From: an uncultured Candidatus Saccharibacteria bacterium
GTDB lineage: Bacteria > Patescibacteriota > Minisyncoccia > Phycocordibacterales > CAIRYW01
Assembly (NCBI GenBank): GCA_964446625.1
Contig: CAYUPH010000004.1
Span: 7,838-71,837 of the forward strand
Reading direction: 5' to 3'
Length of the DNA stretch: 64,000 nucleotides
Shown here one piece after another: positions 2,741 through 40,102 of the stretch (within the stretch, counting starts at the first letter, position 1; every line of letters begins with the position of its first letter). The notes beneath the pieces are model-generated. The model was not told where the DNA came from and searched no databases. It saw only the letters and a program-made list of their open reading frames with translations. The position numbers and the translations under genes are program-made.

Positions 2741-4096
2741 TTAGTATTCTACAAAAGCATCCGCAACTCCATTTGTATCCCCTGCTACAAGATTTGTTGC
2801 AGCAGAAAGGAATCCAAGATATCCCCCGTCTGGAGAAAGTGCAAGGTTTCCTATTTTGACTGAGTCATTAGCCTCAGAGCTATCATATGCAACAACTCGT
2901 CTTGTTGAAGAAGTACTTCGGTCTCGAACAAATACATCAATCTCTCCATTTGTATCCCCTGCTACAAGATTTGTGGCACTAGAAGAGAATGCAACAAGCT
3001 GTCCATCGGCAGACATTGCAACCCCATACTGAATTGCTCCATTTCCAATACTCTCATCGTCTGCAACAGAGACCATTTCTGTTGTTCCAAGAGTTCTGTC
3101 TCTTAGGAAAATATCTGTTGCAGAGTTTGTATCTCCTGCCACAAGATTTGTTCCATCAGAAGCAAATGTAACATAGCGTCCGTCTGATGAAATTGTTACA
3201 TTGTATCCAGTAATGTTGTCTCCATTAGACTCGGCTTCATTATCAGCAATACTTACTCGCTCAGTTGTTCCCAGCTGTCTGTCCCGCACGAAAGTATCGT
3301 TCCCTCCATTTGGGCTCCCTGCATTCGTGTCTCCTGTAACAAGGTTTGATGACCTTGAGTTAAAAGCAACATAGCGACCATCATCTGAAATTCCAAGCCC
3401 TGTTCGGGCATCCAAGTTACCCTGTGCTCCACCTGCTCCAACAGAGACTCTCTCTGTCGTGTTTGTCTGCCGATCTCGCACAAATACATCTGCGTAACCA
3501 TTTGTATCCCCTGCTACAAGATTTGTTGCTTTAGAGAGGAACGCAACATAGCGTCCGTCTCCTGAAATGACAACAGTTGCTCCGTCTACATCATCTTTAT
3601 TTCCTTGTGTTCCATCTGTTGCAACAGACACTCGCTCTGTTGTGTTTGTCTGTCGGTCTCGCACAAACACATCTATCTTTCCATTAGTATCCCCTGCGAC
3701 AAGGTTTGTTGCAGATGACATAAACGCAACATAGCGACCGTCATCTGAAATCGATACTCTAGTGTTAATTGATTTGTTCTGCTGTACTCCAGCAGATGAA
3801 AGAGTTACTCTTTCTATGTCCCCAGTGTTTCTGTTTTTGACAAACACGTCTCCTACACCATTTGTATCCCCTGCAACAAGGTTTGATGCAGTAGAAAAGA
3901 AAGCAACGTACTCTCCATTTTCTGAAATAGAGATTGTTGTACTATATGCGTCAGCTTCTCCCCCTCCTCCTGTAAGGTTTGCTCTTTCAATAGCTCCAAA
4001 TGATGAAACTGGAAGAAGAGTGAGAGCAAGCGCACATAAAATTTTATAATATTTACTCATAAAAATTATTTTAAGGTTACTAATCGACAAGTTCAA
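2741..4096 (-). CDS. secreted PD40/TolB-like beta-propeller repeat protein (paralog of the partial gene at 1..2580)
   Basis: 451 aa; N-terminal signal peptide (KYYKILCALALTLLPVSSFGA); eight-plus repeats of ...Y-V-A-F-x-S-x-A-T/S-N-L-V-A-G-D-T-N-G-x-x-D-V-F-V-R-D-R-Q-T-N-T-T-E-R-V-S (PD40 signature DVFVRDR). Confidence 0.85.
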   Translation of the reverse strand: MNLSISNLKIIFMSKYYKILCALALTLLPVSSFGAIERANLTGGGGEADAYSTTISISENGEYVAFFSTASNLVAGDTNGVGDVFVKNRNTGDIERVTLSSAGVQQNKSINTRVSISDDGRYVAFMSSATNLVAGDTNGKIDVFVRDRQTNTTERVSVATDGTQGNKDDVDGATVVISGDGRYVAFLSKATNLVAGDTNGYADVFVRDRQTNTTERVSVGAGGAQGNLDARTGLGISDDGRYVAFNSRSSNLVTGDTNAGSPNGGNDTFVRDRQLGTTERVSIADNEAESNGDNITGYNVTISSDGRYVTFASDGTNLVAGDTNSATDIFLRDRTLGTTEMVSVADDESIGNGAIQYGVAMSADGQLVAFSSSATNLVAGDTNGEIDVFVRDRSTSSTRRVVAYDSSEANDSVKIGNLALSPDGGYLGFLSAATNLVAGDTNGVADAFVEY

Positions 4097-4214
4097 TTAT
4101 AGAAGGATAGTGATTTTATAAAAAGGTGAAAACTCTTATTTACTTGTTTTAGTATGACTTCATACTATAATCTAAAGGACCCGAAAGGGTCTTAGAAGCT
4201 TAATAATTAAAACT

Positions 4215-5084
4215 ATGAAATATAAAGCACTACTCGCTTTGGCACTCACCCTCTCAGGAACAGGTGTTGCAGGAGCATATGATACAGGCTCATTTACAGT
4301 TGGAAGTGGAGACAAACAAGTTAAGGTTGACCTGGATGCGGCAGCAAATGTGAACCTAAAAAATGGAACTGGGGCAGGTACCGTAAATGTCACAAATACT
4401 AACGGAGGAGTAAATGTAAAAACAAATGTCTCTGTGGATGGAAAACCTTATACAGGAACAGTAAATGTTACTAATACAAATGGTACTATAAATGCAAATT
4501 ACACTGTAAATGGAGTGTCTGGCACAGTAAATGTTACTAATACAAACGGATCCCTTAAAGTTCTTCTTGATGGAAATAATCTAGACGATAACAGTCGAAG
4601 TGCTGTAATTAATCTGTCAGGAAACACAGTAGAGCTTATTAAAAGCGACGAAGACCTTTCTGCATATAACAATGTAGTAGTTAGTTCTTACTCTAACATC
4701 GAGGACGTAGAAACCGACGATAAGGAAGTGAGAGTGGTCTTTGACCAAGATGCTAAATTCCTTGGAGTTTTTGGAACAACTCTTAAGACAGAGGTTTCTG
4801 TTTCAAACGATGACAATACTGTGACAGTTCATACTCCATGGTATGGATTCCTCTTTACTAAATCTGTAAAGAAAGACGATCTTGAAAAATCACTTTCAGT
4901 AAATGTTTCAAAAAACGGATCAAATGGTAGGATTGAGGTTTCTCAAAACGGAAACTCTGGAAGCGTAAATGTACAAAATAGAGCAAAAACAGTAAGCGTC
5001 ATTACTTCAAAAGTAGGACAAACAGGCTCTGTCTCAGTTCAAAGTGGAGACAAAAAAGTAGACGTTAATCTAAGTAACTACTAG
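4215..5084 (+). CDS. secreted repetitive protein of unknown function (TVNVTNTNG repeats)
   Basis: 289 aa; signal peptide MKYKALLALALTLSGTGVAGA; five-plus copies of G-T-V-N-V-T-N-T-N-G; the second half (...GSVNVQNRAKTVSVITSKVGQTGSVSVQSGDKKVDVNLSNY) repeats the N-terminal theme (TVGSGDKQVKVDLD). Confidence 0.7.
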   Translation: MKYKALLALALTLSGTGVAGAYDTGSFTVGSGDKQVKVDLDAAANVNLKNGTGAGTVNVTNTNGGVNVKTNVSVDGKPYTGTVNVTNTNGTINANYTVNGVSGTVNVTNTNGSLKVLLDGNNLDDNSRSAVINLSGNTVELIKSDEDLSAYNNVVVSSYSNIEDVETDDKEVRVVFDQDAKFLGVFGTTLKTEVSVSNDDNTVTVHTPWYGFLFTKSVKKDDLEKSLSVNVSKNGSNGRIEVSQNGNSGSVNVQNRAKTVSVITSKVGQTGSVSVQSGDKKVDVNLSNY

Positions 5085-5130
5085 TCACCCACAAAAAAAC
5101 TCCGCTTTCGCGGAGTTTTTTTGTGGGTGA
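5085..5130. terminator. long perfect-stem bidirectional terminator between convergent genes
   Basis: tcacccacaaaaaaactccgc-tttc-gcggagtttttttgtgggtga: 21-bp inverted repeat with internal A/T runs; sits between stop of 4215..5084 (+) and stop of 5137..6261 (-). Confidence 0.8.
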
Positions 5131-5136
5131 CTTTTC

Positions 5137-6261
5137 CTAGAGTGCATCTATTGCGTCTTCTGCTCTATCTTCTGCTTCTTTTGCCAAATCCTCAGCCTCT
5201 TCATAGTCTTCGTCATCCAAAGCTTCTCTAGCGTCATCGAGGAGATCCTCTGCTTCATCTAGTAAATCCTCAGCTTCGTCCGTATCTTCATCGTCATCCT
5301 CAGCATCACTAATTTCTTGTTTTGCGTCTGAGATCGCTTCTTTTGCATCATCTATGGCATCTTCTGCATCTTCTTTATCATCTGATGCTTCTCCTATAGC
5401 GTCCTCTGCGTCATCAGCTTTGTCCTCCGCGTCCTTTGCCAAATCCTCTGCTTCATCATACTCCTCATCATCAAACCTATCCTCCGCTTCATCTAGTAAA
5501 TCCTCCGCTTCGGCAAGTAAATCCTCTGCTTCATCAACATCATCTCCGTTCCTATCTGCATTTTTGATTTTTGTTCGTACTTCGTCAATTCGATCATCAA
5601 CTTCGTTTATAAGCGTGTCAATTTCATCTTCCTGAGTTTCCCCTCCTGCATCTTGAAATGCTTCTTCTGCGATATCAAACGCATCTTCAGCTGAGCTTAT
5701 TGCCTTCGAATAGTTTCCATCAAAATACTTCTGTACTGCATTAAAAAGTTCTGCTTTTGCGTCATCAATATCATCATCTACATTGCTTCCATCATTGTCG
5801 TCAGCTTCATCCTCTGCTTCTTCAATTTGATCAATTGCTTTAGTTATAGCTTTCTCTGCTTCCCTTTGTTCGCTTGATTTTGAAGGAGTAGTAGTGACGA
5901 CAACTGGAGTGTTTGGAACTTGTACGGGGACTCCGCCAAACAGTCTCTGGTAAAACTCTCTCGAAGCGGGTCCAAAATATCCACTCGCTGGTGTAAGTTT
6001 GTTTGCAGCTTGCCACCGTGCGAGCGCTTGTTTTGTTAGTTGACCAAACTTTGTTGTTTCAAGTCCGCTGGACCCAGGGCCTGTGCTCGAAATCCTATAT
6101 CCTGAGCTATTTAAAAACTTTTGGAGACACCGAACATCTTCTCCCACGTCGTTTATATCCAGGTTTCTCGCAAATACACAGCTGGCAGCTTTCGCTGGAG
6201 CGGCACTAAGCAAGACTCCTAAAATAAACAAAGAAGAAAAAATTAATGAACTTTTTTTCAT
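5137..6261 (-). CDS. secreted protein: N-terminal peptidoglycan-binding (PG_binding_1-like) domain + long poly-acidic (D/E-rich) helical repeat region
   Basis: 374 aa; signal peptide; CLQKFLNSSGYRISSTGPGSSGLETTKFGQLTKQALARWQAANKL resembles PG-binding domain; C-terminal ~250 aa are >50% Asp/Glu with a long duplicated block DEAEDLLDEAEDxxDDEEYDEAEDLAK(D/E)AED... Confidence 0.7.
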   Translation of the reverse strand: MKKSSLIFSSLFILGVLLSAAPAKAASCVFARNLDINDVGEDVRCLQKFLNSSGYRISSTGPGSSGLETTKFGQLTKQALARWQAANKLTPASGYFGPASREFYQRLFGGVPVQVPNTPVVVTTTPSKSSEQREAEKAITKAIDQIEEAEDEADDNDGSNVDDDIDDAKAELFNAVQKYFDGNYSKAISSAEDAFDIAEEAFQDAGGETQEDEIDTLINEVDDRIDEVRTKIKNADRNGDDVDEAEDLLAEAEDLLDEAEDRFDDEEYDEAEDLAKDAEDKADDAEDAIGEASDDKEDAEDAIDDAKEAISDAKQEISDAEDDDEDTDEAEDLLDEAEDLLDDAREALDDEDYEEAEDLAKEAEDRAEDAIDAL

Positions 6262-6324
6262 ATCTTTTTATTATTTCGTTAATATATTTTACCTTCTAAT
6301 TATAATATAAACCCTTGCGAATTT

Positions 6325-6792
6325 CTAAGACTCCATTGCACGCCGGAGATCATCAATACTTAGCTTTGTCATCTGAAGCATGGCATTCATTGCCTTTTTT
6401 GCCTTTGCTCTATCACTATTTCCAATCATCTCGTCTAATTCTTTGGGAACAATTTGCCACGAGAGACCATACTTATCCTTCAGCCACCCACACTGCCCTT
6501 TTTCTCCACCTTCTGATAGCTTCTCCCAATACCAATCTACCTCCTCCTGCGTGTCGCAATTAACAAAAAGAGAAACCGCTTCACTAAACTTAAAGTGAGG
6601 TCCACCGTTTAGGGCGTGGAATTCCTGACCCGCAAGCTCGAAGCGTACCGAAAAAACTTTTCCATCTTCTTCATTTTTGTTAAGAGCAATAATTTTTGCA
6701 CTTTGTCCTCTTGCAGCAAAAATAGAAATATAAAAATTCATTGCTTCTTCTGCCTCAGTGTTGTACCAAAGAAATGGTGTGATTTTTTGCAT
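6325..6792 (-). CDS. PhnB-like / 3-demethylubiquinone-9 3-methyltransferase-domain protein (VOC/glyoxalase superfamily)
   Basis: 155 aa; ITPFLWYNTEAEEAMNFYISIF...GQCGWLKDKYGLSWQIVP matches the PhnB-like (PF06983) pattern; paralog of 23141..23620. Confidence 0.7.
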   Translation of the reverse strand: MQKITPFLWYNTEAEEAMNFYISIFAARGQSAKIIALNKNEEDGKVFSVRFELAGQEFHALNGGPHFKFSEAVSLFVNCDTQEEVDWYWEKLSEGGEKGQCGWLKDKYGLSWQIVPKELDEMIGNSDRAKAKKAMNAMLQMTKLSIDDLRRAMES

Positions 6793-6850
6793 AGTTTTGT
6801 TTTATTAAGCTTTCCTCCATCGTAACATAGATAAATTAAGATTTACTTAA

Positions 6851-37120: not shown

Positions 37121-37362
37121 TTTAAATTTCAATATTTTCCTCTGGAAGTCCCTTCTGCAGAAGGGCTGCGCTGTCGTACAAAGCGTCTATTTTTGCCGCC
37201 TCCTTTACCAAATGCACAGTAAAAAAGAAGAGGTAAATTGAAAACAGTAGACCAAAGAAAAGAAGCTGTTTTGTGTTAGTCACAACGCCATTTTAGCATA
37301 GTTTTGGCGGAGTTGGGGTTTGAATACAAAAAGGTACTAGGTGCTAATCAAGTGAGAACTAC

Positions 37363-37737
37363 TTATTGATTCCTATTCTTTTGAATAATATCAAATATTT
37401 CCAAATCTATAATTTTCAATTTTTGTCCCGGAAAAATCCAAAACCCTTTACATAACAAAACAGTAAATTCGTTTACTTTTTTTACATCTGCAAGTAGTAA
37501 AGATGAAGGTGTTTTTAAAGATTTAAGATCTGACTCTTTATAGAAAATTGAAAATGGTAAATTAGCAACAGCTGGCATATATCTATTTATGACTACCACC
37601 CTCTTATTTGTTACCACCACATCTTGACCAGAAAGTTTTTTATAACTGAGAAACGCGGTCTTTGTTACGACAACATCTTCGATTCTTTTTAGCTCAACTT
37701 CTCCAGGCAGAAGCTCAAAACTCAATATATTAGACAT
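37363..37737 (-). CDS. bacterial PH-domain (bPH_2/YdbT-like) protein
   Basis: 124 aa; GEVELKRIEDVVVTKTAFL...GQDVVVTNKRVVVINRY fits the bPH_2 pattern (…LTNkRl…). Confidence 0.45.
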   Translation of the reverse strand: MSNILSFELLPGEVELKRIEDVVVTKTAFLSYKKLSGQDVVVTNKRVVVINRYMPAVANLPFSIFYKESDLKSLKTPSSLLLADVKKVNEFTVLLCKGFWIFPGQKLKIIDLEIFDIIQKNRNQ

Positions 37738-37774
37738 AAATAAATACTACCGCAGTTTGCTCTTTTGTTCAATT

Positions 37775-37840
37775 ATGCGAATGAAGAGAATCTTTCCGAG
37801 GGCTCAAAACTTTTTCGTCAAAAAGTTTTAGCCTCTGCAC
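37775..37840. repeat. copy A of tRNA-Asp-flank module: degenerate tRNA-Asp 3'-end (atgcgaatgaagagaatc) + conserved 10-nt inverted-repeat element AAAACTTTTT-cgtc-AAAAAGTTTT
   Basis: Near-identical to 38774..38840 and 38476..38530. Confidence 0.7.
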
Positions 37841-37843
37841 TAG

Positions 37844-38368
37844 TTATATTTCTTTTAAAATATTCTCCAACTGAAATTTAACATCTCTTGACGAATCTAT
37901 AGTATAGTGTGGCTTTTCGATTTTTTCGTATATTTTTTTTATTTTAAGATGAGCATTCCACCCCACACCGTTCCCTTTTCTAAACCTTTCTTGTACACGC
38001 TTTTTTAAAATATCGTCTGGGCAAAATACATAAATAATGAAAAATTTAGCTCCATGCTTTTTTGCGGACTGAATCACTACTTCTCGATGCACTCTCTTTG
38101 AAAAAGCACCATCAATTATGATATTTTGTCCTGAAGCTAATGCTAAATCGGTCAACAATGAAAAAACGTTATAACAAATATTTAATTCTTTAATTGTCGG
38201 AGGTTTATCTTTACCAACAAAAGAAGGGTTTTTCAAAATATTTTTTAACGTTGAATCAACAGAAAAAACTTTTGCACCGATTTTATTACCAAATAAATTG
38301 GCGGTAGTAGTTTTTCCTGCCCCCACCTGTCCACAAAATATAAATAATGATTTTTTAATTTTTGTCAT
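37844..38368 (-). CDS. P-loop NTPase, AAA_33/zeta-toxin/polynucleotide-kinase-like small kinase
   Basis: 174 aa; Walker A FCGQVGAGKTTT, Walker B-like IIIDGAF; size and motifs like zeta-toxin/gluconate-kinase-type kinases. Confidence 0.6.
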   Translation of the reverse strand: MTKIKKSLFIFCGQVGAGKTTTANLFGNKIGAKVFSVDSTLKNILKNPSFVGKDKPPTIKELNICYNVFSLLTDLALASGQNIIIDGAFSKRVHREVVIQSAKKHGAKFFIIYVFCPDDILKKRVQERFRKGNGVGWNAHLKIKKIYEKIEKPHYTIDSSRDVKFQLENILKEI

Positions 38369-38475
38369 ATCATTAATAATTATAGCTTTAATTATTTTAT
38401 TAAACTACATTCTCATAATAAACAGAAGCACTAATCCAAAACACCTTTTCTATATACCTCACTTAATTCTATATG

Positions 38476-38790
38476 TGTAAAAGAACATTTCCCGCGACTC
38501 AAAACTTTTTCGTCAAAAAGTTTTAGCCTCCGCACCGCCTCACTTCCGAGCTTTGCTAAGCTCTAACTTTACATTAAAAGTGAAGGGGCTTGGTCACTCT
38601 CGCGGATATTTTTTTCGTCCTGTGGACTCAAAAATATCTCGCTCCCTCGACCCCCATTCGTCGTCTCTGATTTTTCGTTCCTCAAAATCAGGCTTCGCGA
38701 CGACTCAGTTCAAGTCCCTCATCGCGGTAAAACAAAAGTCACCGACTCCTTTCGGAGCCGGTTCCTTTGTTTTATGCGCGAGTGAAGGGA
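38476..38790. repeat. copy B (~310 bp) of tandem module, ending in an exact 15-nt copy of the tRNA-Asp 3' end (GCGCGAGTGAAGGGA, 38776..38790)
   Basis: Shares cccgcgactcaaaactttttcgtcaaaaagttttagcctc(c/t)gcac...cctcacttccgagctttgctaagctctaacttt...aaagtgaaggggcttg with copy C. Confidence 0.75.
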
Positions 38791-39049
38791 ATCTTTCCCG
38801 CGACTCAAAACTTTTTCGTCAAAAAGTTTTAGCCTCTGCACAGCCTCACTTCCGAGCTTTGCTAAGCTCTAACTTTGGCATCAAAAGTGAAGGGGCTTGA
38901 TCCTTACAGGATCAGTACACCTTTTGGTGATTTTGTTTCGTTCCTCACAAAATCAGCTCAAAAGGTTTTCAAGTCCCTTACGCAAGTGCCCCGCACTTGC
39001 TCACTCGCACAAAATAAAAAGCCGCCAAATTTGGCGGCTTTTTATTTTG
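38791..39049. repeat. copy C of tandem module, directly abutting the genuine tRNA-Asp gene; contains an inverted tRNA-like T-arm fragment (ggttttcaagtccctta) and a terminator hairpin
   Basis: Direct tandem repeat of copy B over its first ~110 nt; a diverged homolog lies at 59517..59800. Confidence 0.75.
39014..39047 (-). terminator. terminator of the tRNA-Met/tRNA-Asp transcript (GCCGCC-aaattt-GGCGGC + T-run)
   Basis: aaaagccgccaaatttggcggctttttatttt immediately 3' of tRNA-Asp (minus sense). Confidence 0.75.
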
Positions 39050-39123
39050 CGCGAGTGAAGGGACTTGAACCCTCGGCCTTCCGCGTGACAGGCGGACGCT
39101 CTAACCAGCTGAGCTACACCCGC
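39050..39123 (-). tRNA. tRNA-Asp (anticodon GUC)
   Basis: GCGGGTG-TA-GCTC-AGCTGGTTA-GAGC-G-TCCGC-CT-GTC-AC-GCGGA-AGGCC-GAGGG-TTCAAGT-CCCTT-CACTCGC-G; discriminator G as expected for tRNA-Asp. Confidence 0.85.
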
Positions 39124-39191
39124 ATAGGTGCTTGTCCAAAGAGGTCTTTAGACAAGAGAATTATACACAAAAATAGAAAAACTCAAAATTG

Positions 39192-39264
39192 TGTCGGGAG
39201 TGGGGATTGAACCCACGACCCCAGGCTTATGAGTCCTGTGCTCTACCAACTGAGCTATCCCGAC
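39192..39264 (-). tRNA. tRNA with CAU anticodon (elongator tRNA-Met or tRNA-Ile2), unusual A31*G39 mismatch
   Basis: GTCGGGA-TA-GCTC-AGTTGGTA-GAGC-A-CAGGA-CT-CAT-AA-GCCTG-GGGTC-GTGGG-TTCAATC-CCCAC-TCCCGAC-A; G1:C72 pair argues against initiator. Confidence 0.75.
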
Positions 39265-39307: not shown

Positions 39308-39421
39308 AAAAATACAAAAAAATATATACTAGCCCCTACATACTGCGGGGTAGAGAAGTAGTATCTCGCAAGGCTCATAACCTTGAGGCCTCAGTGCAAT
39401 TCTGAGCCCCGCAACCAGTAT

Positions 39422-40102
39422 TTATATATAGAAGAACTCGTGAAAAACCTTCTTGTACATGCCGATAGCATCTTCGGCGTCTTTTTTTGTGAGCCGATAG
39501 TTTGAGCCACTGTGTGCAATCTCGTTTCGTATTTTGTGTGCTCGCCACGCTTCCGAAAGATGCGTAAAATCTGATGGCTCAATCTGCTTCAGTTTTTCTG
39601 CCACTCCCTCCCCTTCATAACCCATCTTGTCGAGCATTTCATTTAAAATAATATCGCAGTCAAGGATAGCCAGTCGCCAATCTGACTCAAGAGGAGACCT
39701 CATCTTTTCTTCTACCTTAATCCACGTTTTGTTTTTGACAGGCTCAGCTTTTAGTTTCTCTGGTCCAATAAGCGCAGCATCGTGCCCCGCATGCGAAGCG
39801 TGCCCTCCTCCATGTCCTCCGTGACCTCCATGACCGTGCAAGTTATTTAACTCATGTCTGAAGTAGAAAATGCCAAGAACGAACGCCATTGAAAGGAAAA
39901 TAGAAATTACTTGCCCTACATTGTAAACAGTAGAAAGAATTTTTGAAAATGAAGGAATGAGTGCAAAATTAAAATGCACTGCTCCAAGAAAATACTTTCC
40001 AACTGAAAGCAGAACAAAGAAAAGAAGAATCCAAAAGATAGCGTCAACAAATCCGTTTCCGCCTCCCCCTTCACCCCCTGCTGATTTTTTTTCATCTGCC
40101 AT
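39422..40102 (-). CDS. membrane-anchored HEPN-like (DUF4145-type) protein with His/Gly-rich linker
   Basis: 226 aa; Gly-rich N-terminus, 2 TM helices, HGHGGHGGHGGGHASHAGH metal-binding-like tract, C-terminal alpha-helical domain ending ...EAWRAHKIRNEIAHSGSNY = Rx4H HEPN motif. Confidence 0.6.
   Translation of the reverse strand: MADEKKSAGGEGGGGNGFVDAIFWILLFFVLLSVGKYFLGAVHFNFALIPSFSKILSTVYNVGQVISIFLSMAFVLGIFYFRHELNNLHGHGGHGGHGGGHASHAGHDAALIGPEKLKAEPVKNKTWIKVEEKMRSPLESDWRLAILDCDIILNEMLDKMGYEGEGVAEKLKQIEPSDFTHLSEAWRAHKIRNEIAHSGSNYRLTKKDAEDAIGMYKKVFHEFFYI

Follow-up and report, generated by a model that had tools for sequence, protein, structure and literature searches.

We describe a tandem array of structured repeats directly behind a tRNA-Asp gene in a 64-kb stretch of bacterial DNA (64,000 nucleotides; the window hereafter), whose proteins match metagenome assemblies of Candidatus Paceibacterota (Patescibacteria, of the candidate phyla radiation). 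The array comprises two full units, B and C, and one partial copy, A, all apparently on the same strand as the tRNA and each closed by a copy of the tRNA's own 3' end. Feature coordinates are positions in the window, and unit layout is read in the tRNA sense, which is the minus strand. The tRNA-Asp(GUC) gene occupies 39049-39123 (minus strand; ARAGORN, and 70.9 bits with the Rfam tRNA model). Its 3' end together with one flanking base, 39048-39063 in plus-strand coordinates and TCCCTTCACTCGCGCA in tRNA sense, is the template of the copies.

By exact search, the 15-mer GCGCGAGTGAAGGGA occurs exactly twice, with starts at 38776 and 39049, and with the adjacent T it forms the perfect 16-mer. The perfect 16-nt recurrence of the tRNA end lies 273 nt downstream, at 38775-38790. 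Degenerate copies close unit B (38470-38485, minus strand, TTCTTTTACACATATA) and copy A (37774-37789, minus strand, TCTCTTCATTCGCATA). An earlier note on this DNA, made from the sequence, had reported the tRNA-Asp 3' end recurring in tandem junctions, and this is borne out by the one exact and two degenerate copies. Each of the three downstream copies is preceded by an identical stretch of 33-49 nt with a perfect 10-bp hairpin. Exact matches to the core of this stretch, the 33-mer CTCAAAACTTTTTCGTCAAAAAGTTTTAGCCTC, number three in the 64 kb of the window (37803, 38498 and 38804; 0 in 100 shuffles). The 33-mer belongs to a 64-nt family (37777-37840, 38472-38535 and 38778-38841) of 77-91% identity, in which the repeat search finds a perfect 10+4+10 hairpin in all three copies. 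This hairpin, which we call P2, reads AAAACTTTTT-GACG-AAAAAGTTTT at 37806-37829 (minus strand; repeat search), with identical copies at 38501-38524 and 38807-38830. The repeats are real and lie beyond chance.

Within the sequence searched, the copies are confined to this tRNA. The 33-mer is found only at the tRNA-Asp locus within the 64 kb, and a covariance model built from five unit cores (R1) recovers only tRNA-Asp-linked copies in 160 kb of sequence. The earlier note had named a widespread intergenic repeat unrelated to tRNA loci as the finding that would undo its interpretation, and in both searches the copies stay at tRNA-Asp. A miniature inverted-repeat transposable element (MITE) or other dispersed intergenic repeat was rejected on the same two counts, as no dispersed copies appear in the 64 kb with the 33-mer or in the 160 kb with R1.

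Unit C is complete at 273 nt (38775-39047, minus strand; repeat search and folds, 101 bits with R1). It holds an inverted tRNA 3' end (38968-39011) that is interrupted by an 8-bp hairpin, a hairpin with the loop GAGGAACGAA (38920-38965), a further hairpin (38899-38913), an extra partial direct copy of the tRNA end (38886-38900), and two domains, D1 (38843-38879) and D2 (38775-38841), the latter ending in the perfect 16-nt copy at 38775-38790. Unit B, complete at 305 nt (38470-38774, minus strand; terminator scan, repeat search and folds, 69.6 bits with R1), holds an inverted copy (38708-38727), a GAGGAACGAA-loop hairpin (38660-38704), an extra hairpin, an extra partial direct copy (38579-38593), D1 (approximately 38537-38572) and D2 (38470-38535). 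In each full unit, one inverted copy covers the T-loop, T-stem and acceptor 3' strand of the tRNA. The 10-nt GAGGAACGAA loop is identical in B and C, although the stems that carry it are wholly different. The earlier note had treated B and C as direct repeats of about 300 bp, which holds only for their tRNA-distal third (88 nt at 95% and 24 nt at 92% identity); the other two thirds have diverged in sequence and retain equivalent hairpins.

Copy A consists of domain D2 only (37774-37840, minus strand) and scores 61 bits with R1, although it was outside the training set. It begins 3 nt past the stop codon of a kinase gene and runs in the order P1 GUGC, 10-bp hairpin, GGAA/UUCU hairpin and degenerate terminal copy. 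A search for further decayed units between the kinase gene, a 124-aa gene and a methyltransferase gene found nothing above shuffle level. For that reason we claim as units neither CCCTTCTGCAGAAGGGACTT, a palindrome at 37146-37166, nor AAGTGAGG, an 8-mer that follows 38470. Two terminator-like hairpins bracket unit C, which begins with T1. T1 (39001-39058; repeat search, folds and Rfam terminator-type partial matches) has a G+C hairpin, GCCGCC-AAATTT-GGCGGC, at 39021-39038 with T/A runs on either side. It widens to a 29+29-nt, 97% palindrome, one arm of which takes in the tRNA acceptor 3' strand and the other the inverted copy of that strand. T2 (38741-38762; terminator scan) opens unit B.

Single homologous units lie directly 3' of tRNA-Asp in three very distantly related Paceibacterota genomes, L016 (a 596-kb contig), L019 and L020, and in these as in the window they begin at the base after the tRNA end. 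GatA of the window is 54-59% identical to that of the three carriers, within a range of 52-60% among all compared genomes, and the carriers are not closer to one another than to non-carriers. The unit core is 62-80% identical, compared with 85-96% for the tRNA, and is thus alignable at a GatA distance at which neutral intergenic DNA should not be. The terminal 16-mer matches the host's own tRNA-Asp end at 16/16 positions in window unit C and L016 and at 15/16 in L019 and L020, and carries the host-specific T-stem bases (CCCTT, CCCGC or CCCAT). The inverted copy likewise tracks the host tRNA in the window, L019 and L020, with L016 ambiguous. Across the array, same-species contigs show no differences (100% identity), and in an 84%-identical relative (L014) the contig stops before tRNA-Asp. 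The earlier note had suggested a comparison with genomes that have an empty tRNA-Asp site. Such sites, followed by a plain terminator or at once by the next gene, are present in L025-28, L029 and L013, all distant genomes.

The design extends beyond tRNA-Asp. On both sides of 34 non-redundant tRNA genes, we looked for copies of the gene's own 3' end in either orientation. Inverted and direct copies together occur downstream of tRNA-Asp in the window and in L020, and downstream of an initiator-like tRNA-Met in L015; no copies lie upstream of any of the 34 genes. The tRNA-Asp of L016 showed a direct copy only, as its inverted copy is interrupted by a hairpin and escaped the scan, and the tRNA-Ile of L021 has an inverted copy alone downstream. 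The L015 unit (3567-3700) combines an 11-nt inverted T-loop copy, AGGAATTGCAC, with two long hairpins and ends in a perfect 21-nt copy of the tRNA 3' end, AATTCCTAGCCCCGCAACAAG (21/21). Its interior is unrelated to the tRNA-Asp units. Together with the scan, this unit indicates that the design is not tied to one tRNA.

The two domains have simple folds. D1 forms a stem that contains a tandem G·A loop; its parts are helix H1 (GNC/GNC, with G·U, C-G and G-C variants), a GGA/GA internal loop, helix H2 (GCG/CGC or AUG/CAU) and hairpin H3, whose loop is AGYA. In D2, a three-way junction, P1 pairs GUGC with GCGC at the extreme 3' end, P2 is the 10-bp hairpin closed by GAC/GUC, and P3, GGGAA-AGA-UUCCC, uses the first bases of the 16-mer. 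In the relatives the P2-equivalent hairpin keeps its length and place with other sequences: it always has 10 bp and a tetraloop, and is AT-rich in the window, L016 and L019 and GC-rich with two tandem G·A pairs in L020. In minimum-energy folds of isolated units (window, L016, L019, L020 and L015), the terminator hairpin comes first and the inverted copy pairs with the terminal copy. The resulting closing helix of 13-16 bp shuts a multibranch domain behind the terminator and, in these predicted structures, appears to imitate the stacked acceptor and T stems of tRNA-Asp.

Consensus folding of the alignments with RNAalifold recovers the D1 and D2 helices. In the five-sequence alignment, 89.6% of cells are paired and 11 pairs have changed on both sides; no measure is equalled by any of 500 shuffles, and pairing in slid controls is 33-56%. 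The G·U and tandem G·A pairs occur only in the tRNA sense, the plus strand giving A·C and pyrimidine mismatches in their place. Fold stability favours the sense strand in four of six units, with one tie and L019 reversed. The units are therefore conserved as a structured element with compensatory changes, in which the tRNA-sense strand is preferred. What the earlier note had called the same foreign sequence with a 10-nt inverted repeat, fused to each tRNA end, is thus a shared stretch with a hairpin, as it said, and a conserved structured element rather than a decaying foreign junction.

The closest known parallel is in Escherichia coli, where 22 units of tRNA-linked repeats (TLRs) are spread over ten tRNA and rRNA operons, with between one and five at a locus (PMC8144298, which cites Egan & Landy 1978 and Rudd 1999). 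At its 3' end, each unit repeats exactly the last 18-19 bp of the gene directly before it; the units are transcribed by read-through between dual terminators and then processed, and the repeated end has been proposed to recruit the parent RNA's own 3' processing. They are not integrated elements (PMC8144298). We applied the same tests to the E. coli tyrT-tyrV locus as a control. It holds four units of 175-178 nt, each ending in a 19-nt copy of the tRNA-Tyr 3' end, AATCCTTCCCCCACCACCA, that starts inside the T-loop. In minimum-energy folds of the three 178-nt units downstream of tyrV, an inverted 10-mer, GGGGAAGGAT, lies approximately 100 nt upstream of the terminal copy and pairs with it. In the 175-nt unit between the two tyr tRNA genes, the equivalent stretch GGGGAAGGGT pairs instead. 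A layout of terminator, inverted tRNA-end copy, branched fold and direct tRNA-end copy starting in the T-loop is thus shared by the window units and the tyrT TLRs.

We propose that the Paceibacterota units are TLR-like structured RNA units, counterparts in design of the E. coli TLRs, that would be transcribed by read-through and trimmed in the manner of a tRNA. We assign this reading a probability of roughly 55%. By analogy with the E. coli TLRs, RNA polymerase reading through T1 would transcribe the units in the tRNA sense. The tRNA-like 3' helix would then recruit the tRNA 3'-processing machinery, which would set the RNA end, and a discrete structured RNA, perhaps regulatory or a decoy, would be released. 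The window array may have grown by unequal recombination between the repeated ends. The kinase gene, with its own TATAAT-like promoter sequence, may later have replaced or split the 5' part of a third unit.

Several observations weigh against this proposal. No convincing promoter is found inside the units, and T1 looks like a strong terminator. The covariation is drawn from four lineages only. The three D2 copies of the window are near-identical over their first 40 nt and sharply different over the last 25 nt, a switch that also fits recombination at a fixed point. The distribution is patchy, with non-carriers (L013, L025-28 and L029) no more distant than carriers, which would suit a mobile element. 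TLRs themselves, known in E. coli since 1978, mostly still have no assigned function (PMC8144298). Finally, the Rfam model RtT (RF00391), which scores 133-137 bits on the E. coli tyrT locus as a positive control (gathering score 45 bits), has no match in the window or L016, even at E<=10. Given this failure, we regard the window units as analogues of the E. coli TLRs and not as homologues.

Tandem accretion at tRNA genes, as in tycheposon islands, is one way in which integrases give rise to repeats of tRNA fragments. The earlier note had read the array as serial integrase-mediated insertion with later decay. We find no integrase and no source element, and conserved, covarying units in place of decayed ones. 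Pfam domain lists show no integrase or transposase within approximately 10 kb of the tRNA-Asp locus in any of five lineages. Neither junction nor unit has a match in viral contigs (searched with exact and degenerate junction patterns) or in phages, and plasmids yield only a 31-nt terminator-like match. A metagenome junction scan returned two true single-unit loci and one chance match in a GC-rich ParE gene. The intact, integrase-bearing elements with the same junction that the earlier note had proposed to look for are absent from all four sources. An 81-aa open reading frame (ORF) upstream of the L016 tRNA-Asp was considered as a recombinase remnant and set aside, having no Pfam support; the candidate ORFs tested around the loci were all negative for an integrase. 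The integrase-scar reading is weakened further by the E. coli comparison, as the same signature marks the TLRs (checked at tyrT), which are not integrated elements.

A version of integration survives best among the alternatives, and we consider it unlikely. Here the units would be miniature, non-autonomous elements resembling cis-mobilizable elements (CIMEs), with attL as the restored tRNA end and attR as the displaced end, moved in trans by a tyrosine recombinase and carrying the kinase as cargo. Such elements would account for the direct repeats of the tRNA 3' end that bound each unit, for the empty sites in L025-28 and L029 and the patchy distribution, and for the kinase being flanked by two D2 copies. 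B and C share a layout but have diverged over the two thirds nearer the tRNA, a pattern to be expected if related elements had inserted separately, and the sharp switch from near-identity to divergence inside D2 points the same way. The conserved sequence beside the distal repeat, AGTCGAGGGAAAGAT, resembles a recombinase arm site, and integration is known to yield tRNA-fragment repeats (bioRxiv 10.1101/2022.07.05.498093). Against this stand the lack of an integrase near the five loci and of any larger junction-bearing element in viral contigs, metagenomes, phages or plasmids. Strand-specific G·U covariation is not expected of protein-binding att arms, and an inverted copy that tracks the host tRNA is not predicted by simple integration. 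In all four lineages the distal copies match at 15/16 positions or perfectly and show no decay, and the E. coli TLRs show the same signature without an integrase.

We rate the remaining alternatives as less likely than miniature elements. One is that the units are non-functional pseudo-tRNA debris, old tandem duplications of tRNA-Asp and its spacer in which the 3' end is best preserved. Drawn by eye, their terminal part can pass for a reduced tRNA, with P1 as an acceptor-like stem, one arm and GGGAA-AGA-UUCCC as a pseudo-T-arm, and the window copies at 38470-85 and 37774-89 are degenerate. Outside the 16-mer and the inverted T-loop, however, similarity to the tRNA is at chance level (local alignment against shuffles), and neither ARAGORN nor the tRNA covariance model finds anything in the units. 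Debris would also not retain shared derived motifs and compensatory changes at 54-59% GatA identity, and we think this origin improbable. A second tRNA-Asp or a pseudogene was likewise rejected, the alignment made by eye being unsupported by local alignment against shuffles.

We see an equally small chance that the units are non-autonomous mobile modules, whose inverted and direct copies would fold, as single-stranded DNA or as RNA, into a likeness of the target acceptable to a host recombinase. If so, a mechanism like that of CTX phage or integron attC sites, aimed at tRNA genes, could explain both the origin of the E. coli TLRs and the D2-bounded kinase 'cassette'. More doubtful still is the specific form in which the units are folded single-strand DNA sites of the integron attC or CTX-phage attP type, where a lagging-strand fold would mimic the duplex tRNA end and an Xer-like host recombinase would insert units and cassettes (kinase plus D2); it is built wholly on analogy. 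An inverted copy, a structured spacer and a direct target copy at the distal unit end give the CTX/attC-type topology. Structure rather than sequence is conserved, strand-specifically, and the D2 copy 3 nt past the kinase ORF resembles a cassette with its attC. The tRNA-sense strand is probably the lagging-strand template, as it is the sense strand of nearly all genes here. Yet no integron integrase is found, and direct reading of the sequence shows neither the R'' (RYYYAAC) nor the R' (GTTRRRY) box of attC in D2. A terminator is the only 'cargo' that separates the inverted copy from the tRNA, no inverted copy is present in the kinase unit, and no circular or free forms are known.

Least probable is a non-coding RNA on the plus strand, convergent with tRNA-Asp and ending at a shared bidirectional terminator: the plus-strand folds are very stable (z = -10.5 and -6.8), a hairpin and then a T-run lie at its end (39021-39047) and T-loop-like GTTCAAGTCCC motifs are in sense there, but the G·U and tandem G·A pairs are lost as A·C and pyrimidine mismatches, minus-strand folds are the more stable in four of six units, the plus strand has no promoter-like site within the units, and E. 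coli TLRs run in the tRNA sense. Known RNA families were also rejected, since Rfam at permissive thresholds gave only tRNAs and terminator-driven partial matches. A hammerhead-like CUGACGAG in the L016 hairpin loop is not conserved, and a casposon or MITE was discarded because terminal inverted repeats directly at the unit ends are absent.

The kinase gene within the array encodes a 174-aa P-loop protein (37844-38368, minus strand; Pfam AAA_33 at E=3e-17, Zeta_toxin and KTI12), for which NCBIfam gives weak PSTK/Pnkp-type matches alone. A TATAAT-like promoter sequence precedes it (approximately 38385-38395). As the earlier note had stated, on ORF position and domain type alike, this zeta-toxin/AAA_33-like kinase is the sole gene between copy A and the copy starting at 38472. 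Homologues of 49-64% identity occupy unrelated contexts, one after gyrA and tail-to-tail with tRNA-Ile (L021) and another before polA (L022), and we therefore regard the kinase as a lineage-specific insertion. Its description as cargo holds to that extent; an integrase-borne origin has no direct support. The kinase was also considered and rejected as a constant partner of the modules, the L022 homologue being unlinked to them and the L021 homologue merely tail-to-tail with tRNA-Ile.

That L021 homologue (6001-6797) is 49% identical and adjoins a tRNA-Ile(UAU) whose trailer carries an inverted T-loop copy, GAAGGACTCGAA, as well as a terminator palindrome that extends into the CCA end. In two of the three contexts examined, the kinase is thus next to a tRNA with a structured trailer, which may be chance. 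Behind copy A lies a 124-aa ORF (37363-37737, minus strand) with no assigned family and no homologue in the relatives' loci. The interval before it (37738-37773) contains TTGAAC-17 nt-TAGTAT approximately 7 nt before the ATG, which suggests a leaderless transcript. Both this ORF and the kinase are absent from the conserved tRNA-Asp-to-methyltransferase interval of the relatives.

On the far side of the tRNA genes lies a 226-aa membrane protein (39422-40102, minus strand) that has one or two membrane helices at its N-terminus, a linker rich in His and Gly, HGHGGHGGHGGGHASHAGHD, and an R-x4-H motif at its C-terminus. Homologues (91) accompany gatCA across Paceibacterota. Pfam gives no match, and a Cas13e HEPN model gives E=0.03; the motif and this match weakly suggest a HEPN-like protein. 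The conserved gene order is gatC-gatA-(HEPN-like gene)-tRNA-Met-tRNA-Met-(tRNA-Asp)-methyltransferase-...-prfB-ftsE. The earlier note had counted the HEPN protein as surviving cargo, which is contradicted by its synteny with gatC-gatA and the tRNA-Met genes in every relative examined; it is a core gene of the locus.

The tRNA cluster shows further variation. Several relatives have ORFs that stop at the 5' end of tRNA-Asp or elongator tRNA-Met or run into it (L026 1646-2299; L019 approximately 4010-4312, minus strand; L016 6896-7555; L014 990-1634; L029 4939-5646), with none in the window. One is LAGLIDADG-type homing-endonuclease-like (Pfam LAGLIDADG_3, E=5e-15) and the others are of helix-turn-helix type, and the cluster looks like a landing pad for free-standing selfish genes. 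In L019 (around 3745-3980, minus strand), an intervening sequence of approximately 240 nt splits tRNA-Asp right after anticodon position 35, the site of a group I intron recently reported for Patescibacteria (bioRxiv 10.1101/2025.07.03.662931); this interrupted gene was missed by ARAGORN and by Rfam at gathering score. The initiator-like tRNA-Met next to the HEPN-like gene (window 39344-39417, plus strand) runs against its neighbours in the window, L014, L016, L020 and L029 and with them in L013, L015, L023 and L025, a single-gene inversion polymorphism. The L016 gatA (4550-5972) is called as two ORFs of 257 and 214 aa, from a frameshift or a sequencing error. At least 10 independent assemblies of this and related species, L030-L033 among them, break inside or just before the tRNA cluster after the HEPN-like gene, with the window break point at approximately 39228-39235, inside the tRNA-Met at 39191-39264. 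These breaks likely arise from tRNA sequences shared among co-occurring genomes, and they limit comparative work on the locus.

Set against known systems, the units have partial likenesses to two kinds of recombination site. With integron attC and the folded attP of CTX phage they share inverted and direct core copies around a structured spacer, strand-specific conservation of structure over sequence, and an ORF coupled to a site (kinase and D2). They differ in having no IntI, attI or R''/R' motifs and in targeting a tRNA end, not attI or dif. With integrase-made tRNA-fragment repeats, such as attL/attR islands and CIMEs, they share bounding repeats of the tRNA 3' end, tandem arrays, cargo genes and empty sites in relatives. 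In contrast to these, no recombinase is found, and the units are only 170-305 bp, with an inverted target copy and RNA-like covariation over deep divergence. For annotation, the comparison carries a caution, since a repeated tRNA 3' end alone is no evidence of integrase activity in genomic islands.

The likeness to E. coli TLRs (rttR/RtT of the tyrT operon, RF00391, and RrA/RrB/RrF of the rrn operons) covers position, number and design. Both kinds of unit directly follow a tRNA (or 5S) gene, share its strand and sit between terminators; for the units described here, we deduce the orientation from the G·U and G·A pairs and from fold energies. They number one to five per locus, often in tandem, compared here with two full units and a partial one, or with a single unit in L016, L019 and L020. 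Both end in a copy of the upstream gene that starts inside the T-loop, of 16-21 nt here and 18-19 in E. coli, and in both a fold of several hairpins is closed where the terminal copy pairs with an inverted stretch inside the unit, a feature that we derived here from the tyrT units. The differences are also clear. There is no sequence or covariance-model similarity to RtT, and the host belongs to another phylum (Patescibacteria/Paceibacterota). The copied end in the window lacks CCA, which the tRNA-Asp gene does not encode, and runs two bases past the discriminator. The window-type inverted copy, at up to 23 nt, exceeds that of E. coli, takes in the T-loop complement and may hold an inserted hairpin, and a protein-coding gene, the kinase, lies inside the window array. 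Transcription and processing, described for the E. coli units, are predictions for those here. They are best filed as a sequence-unrelated TLR variant, new in a candidate-phyla bacterium, and not as a new kind of system. Such a variant provides a second, independent system for asking what tRNA-end mimics do; as candidate roles, they may be processing signals, act as decoys for enzymes that bind or cleave tRNA, or serve as small RNAs coupled to growth rate. That the design recurs in tiny-genome Patescibacteria, with compensatory changes over deep divergence, argues that TLR-like units are selected and recurrent and not an enterobacterial quirk.

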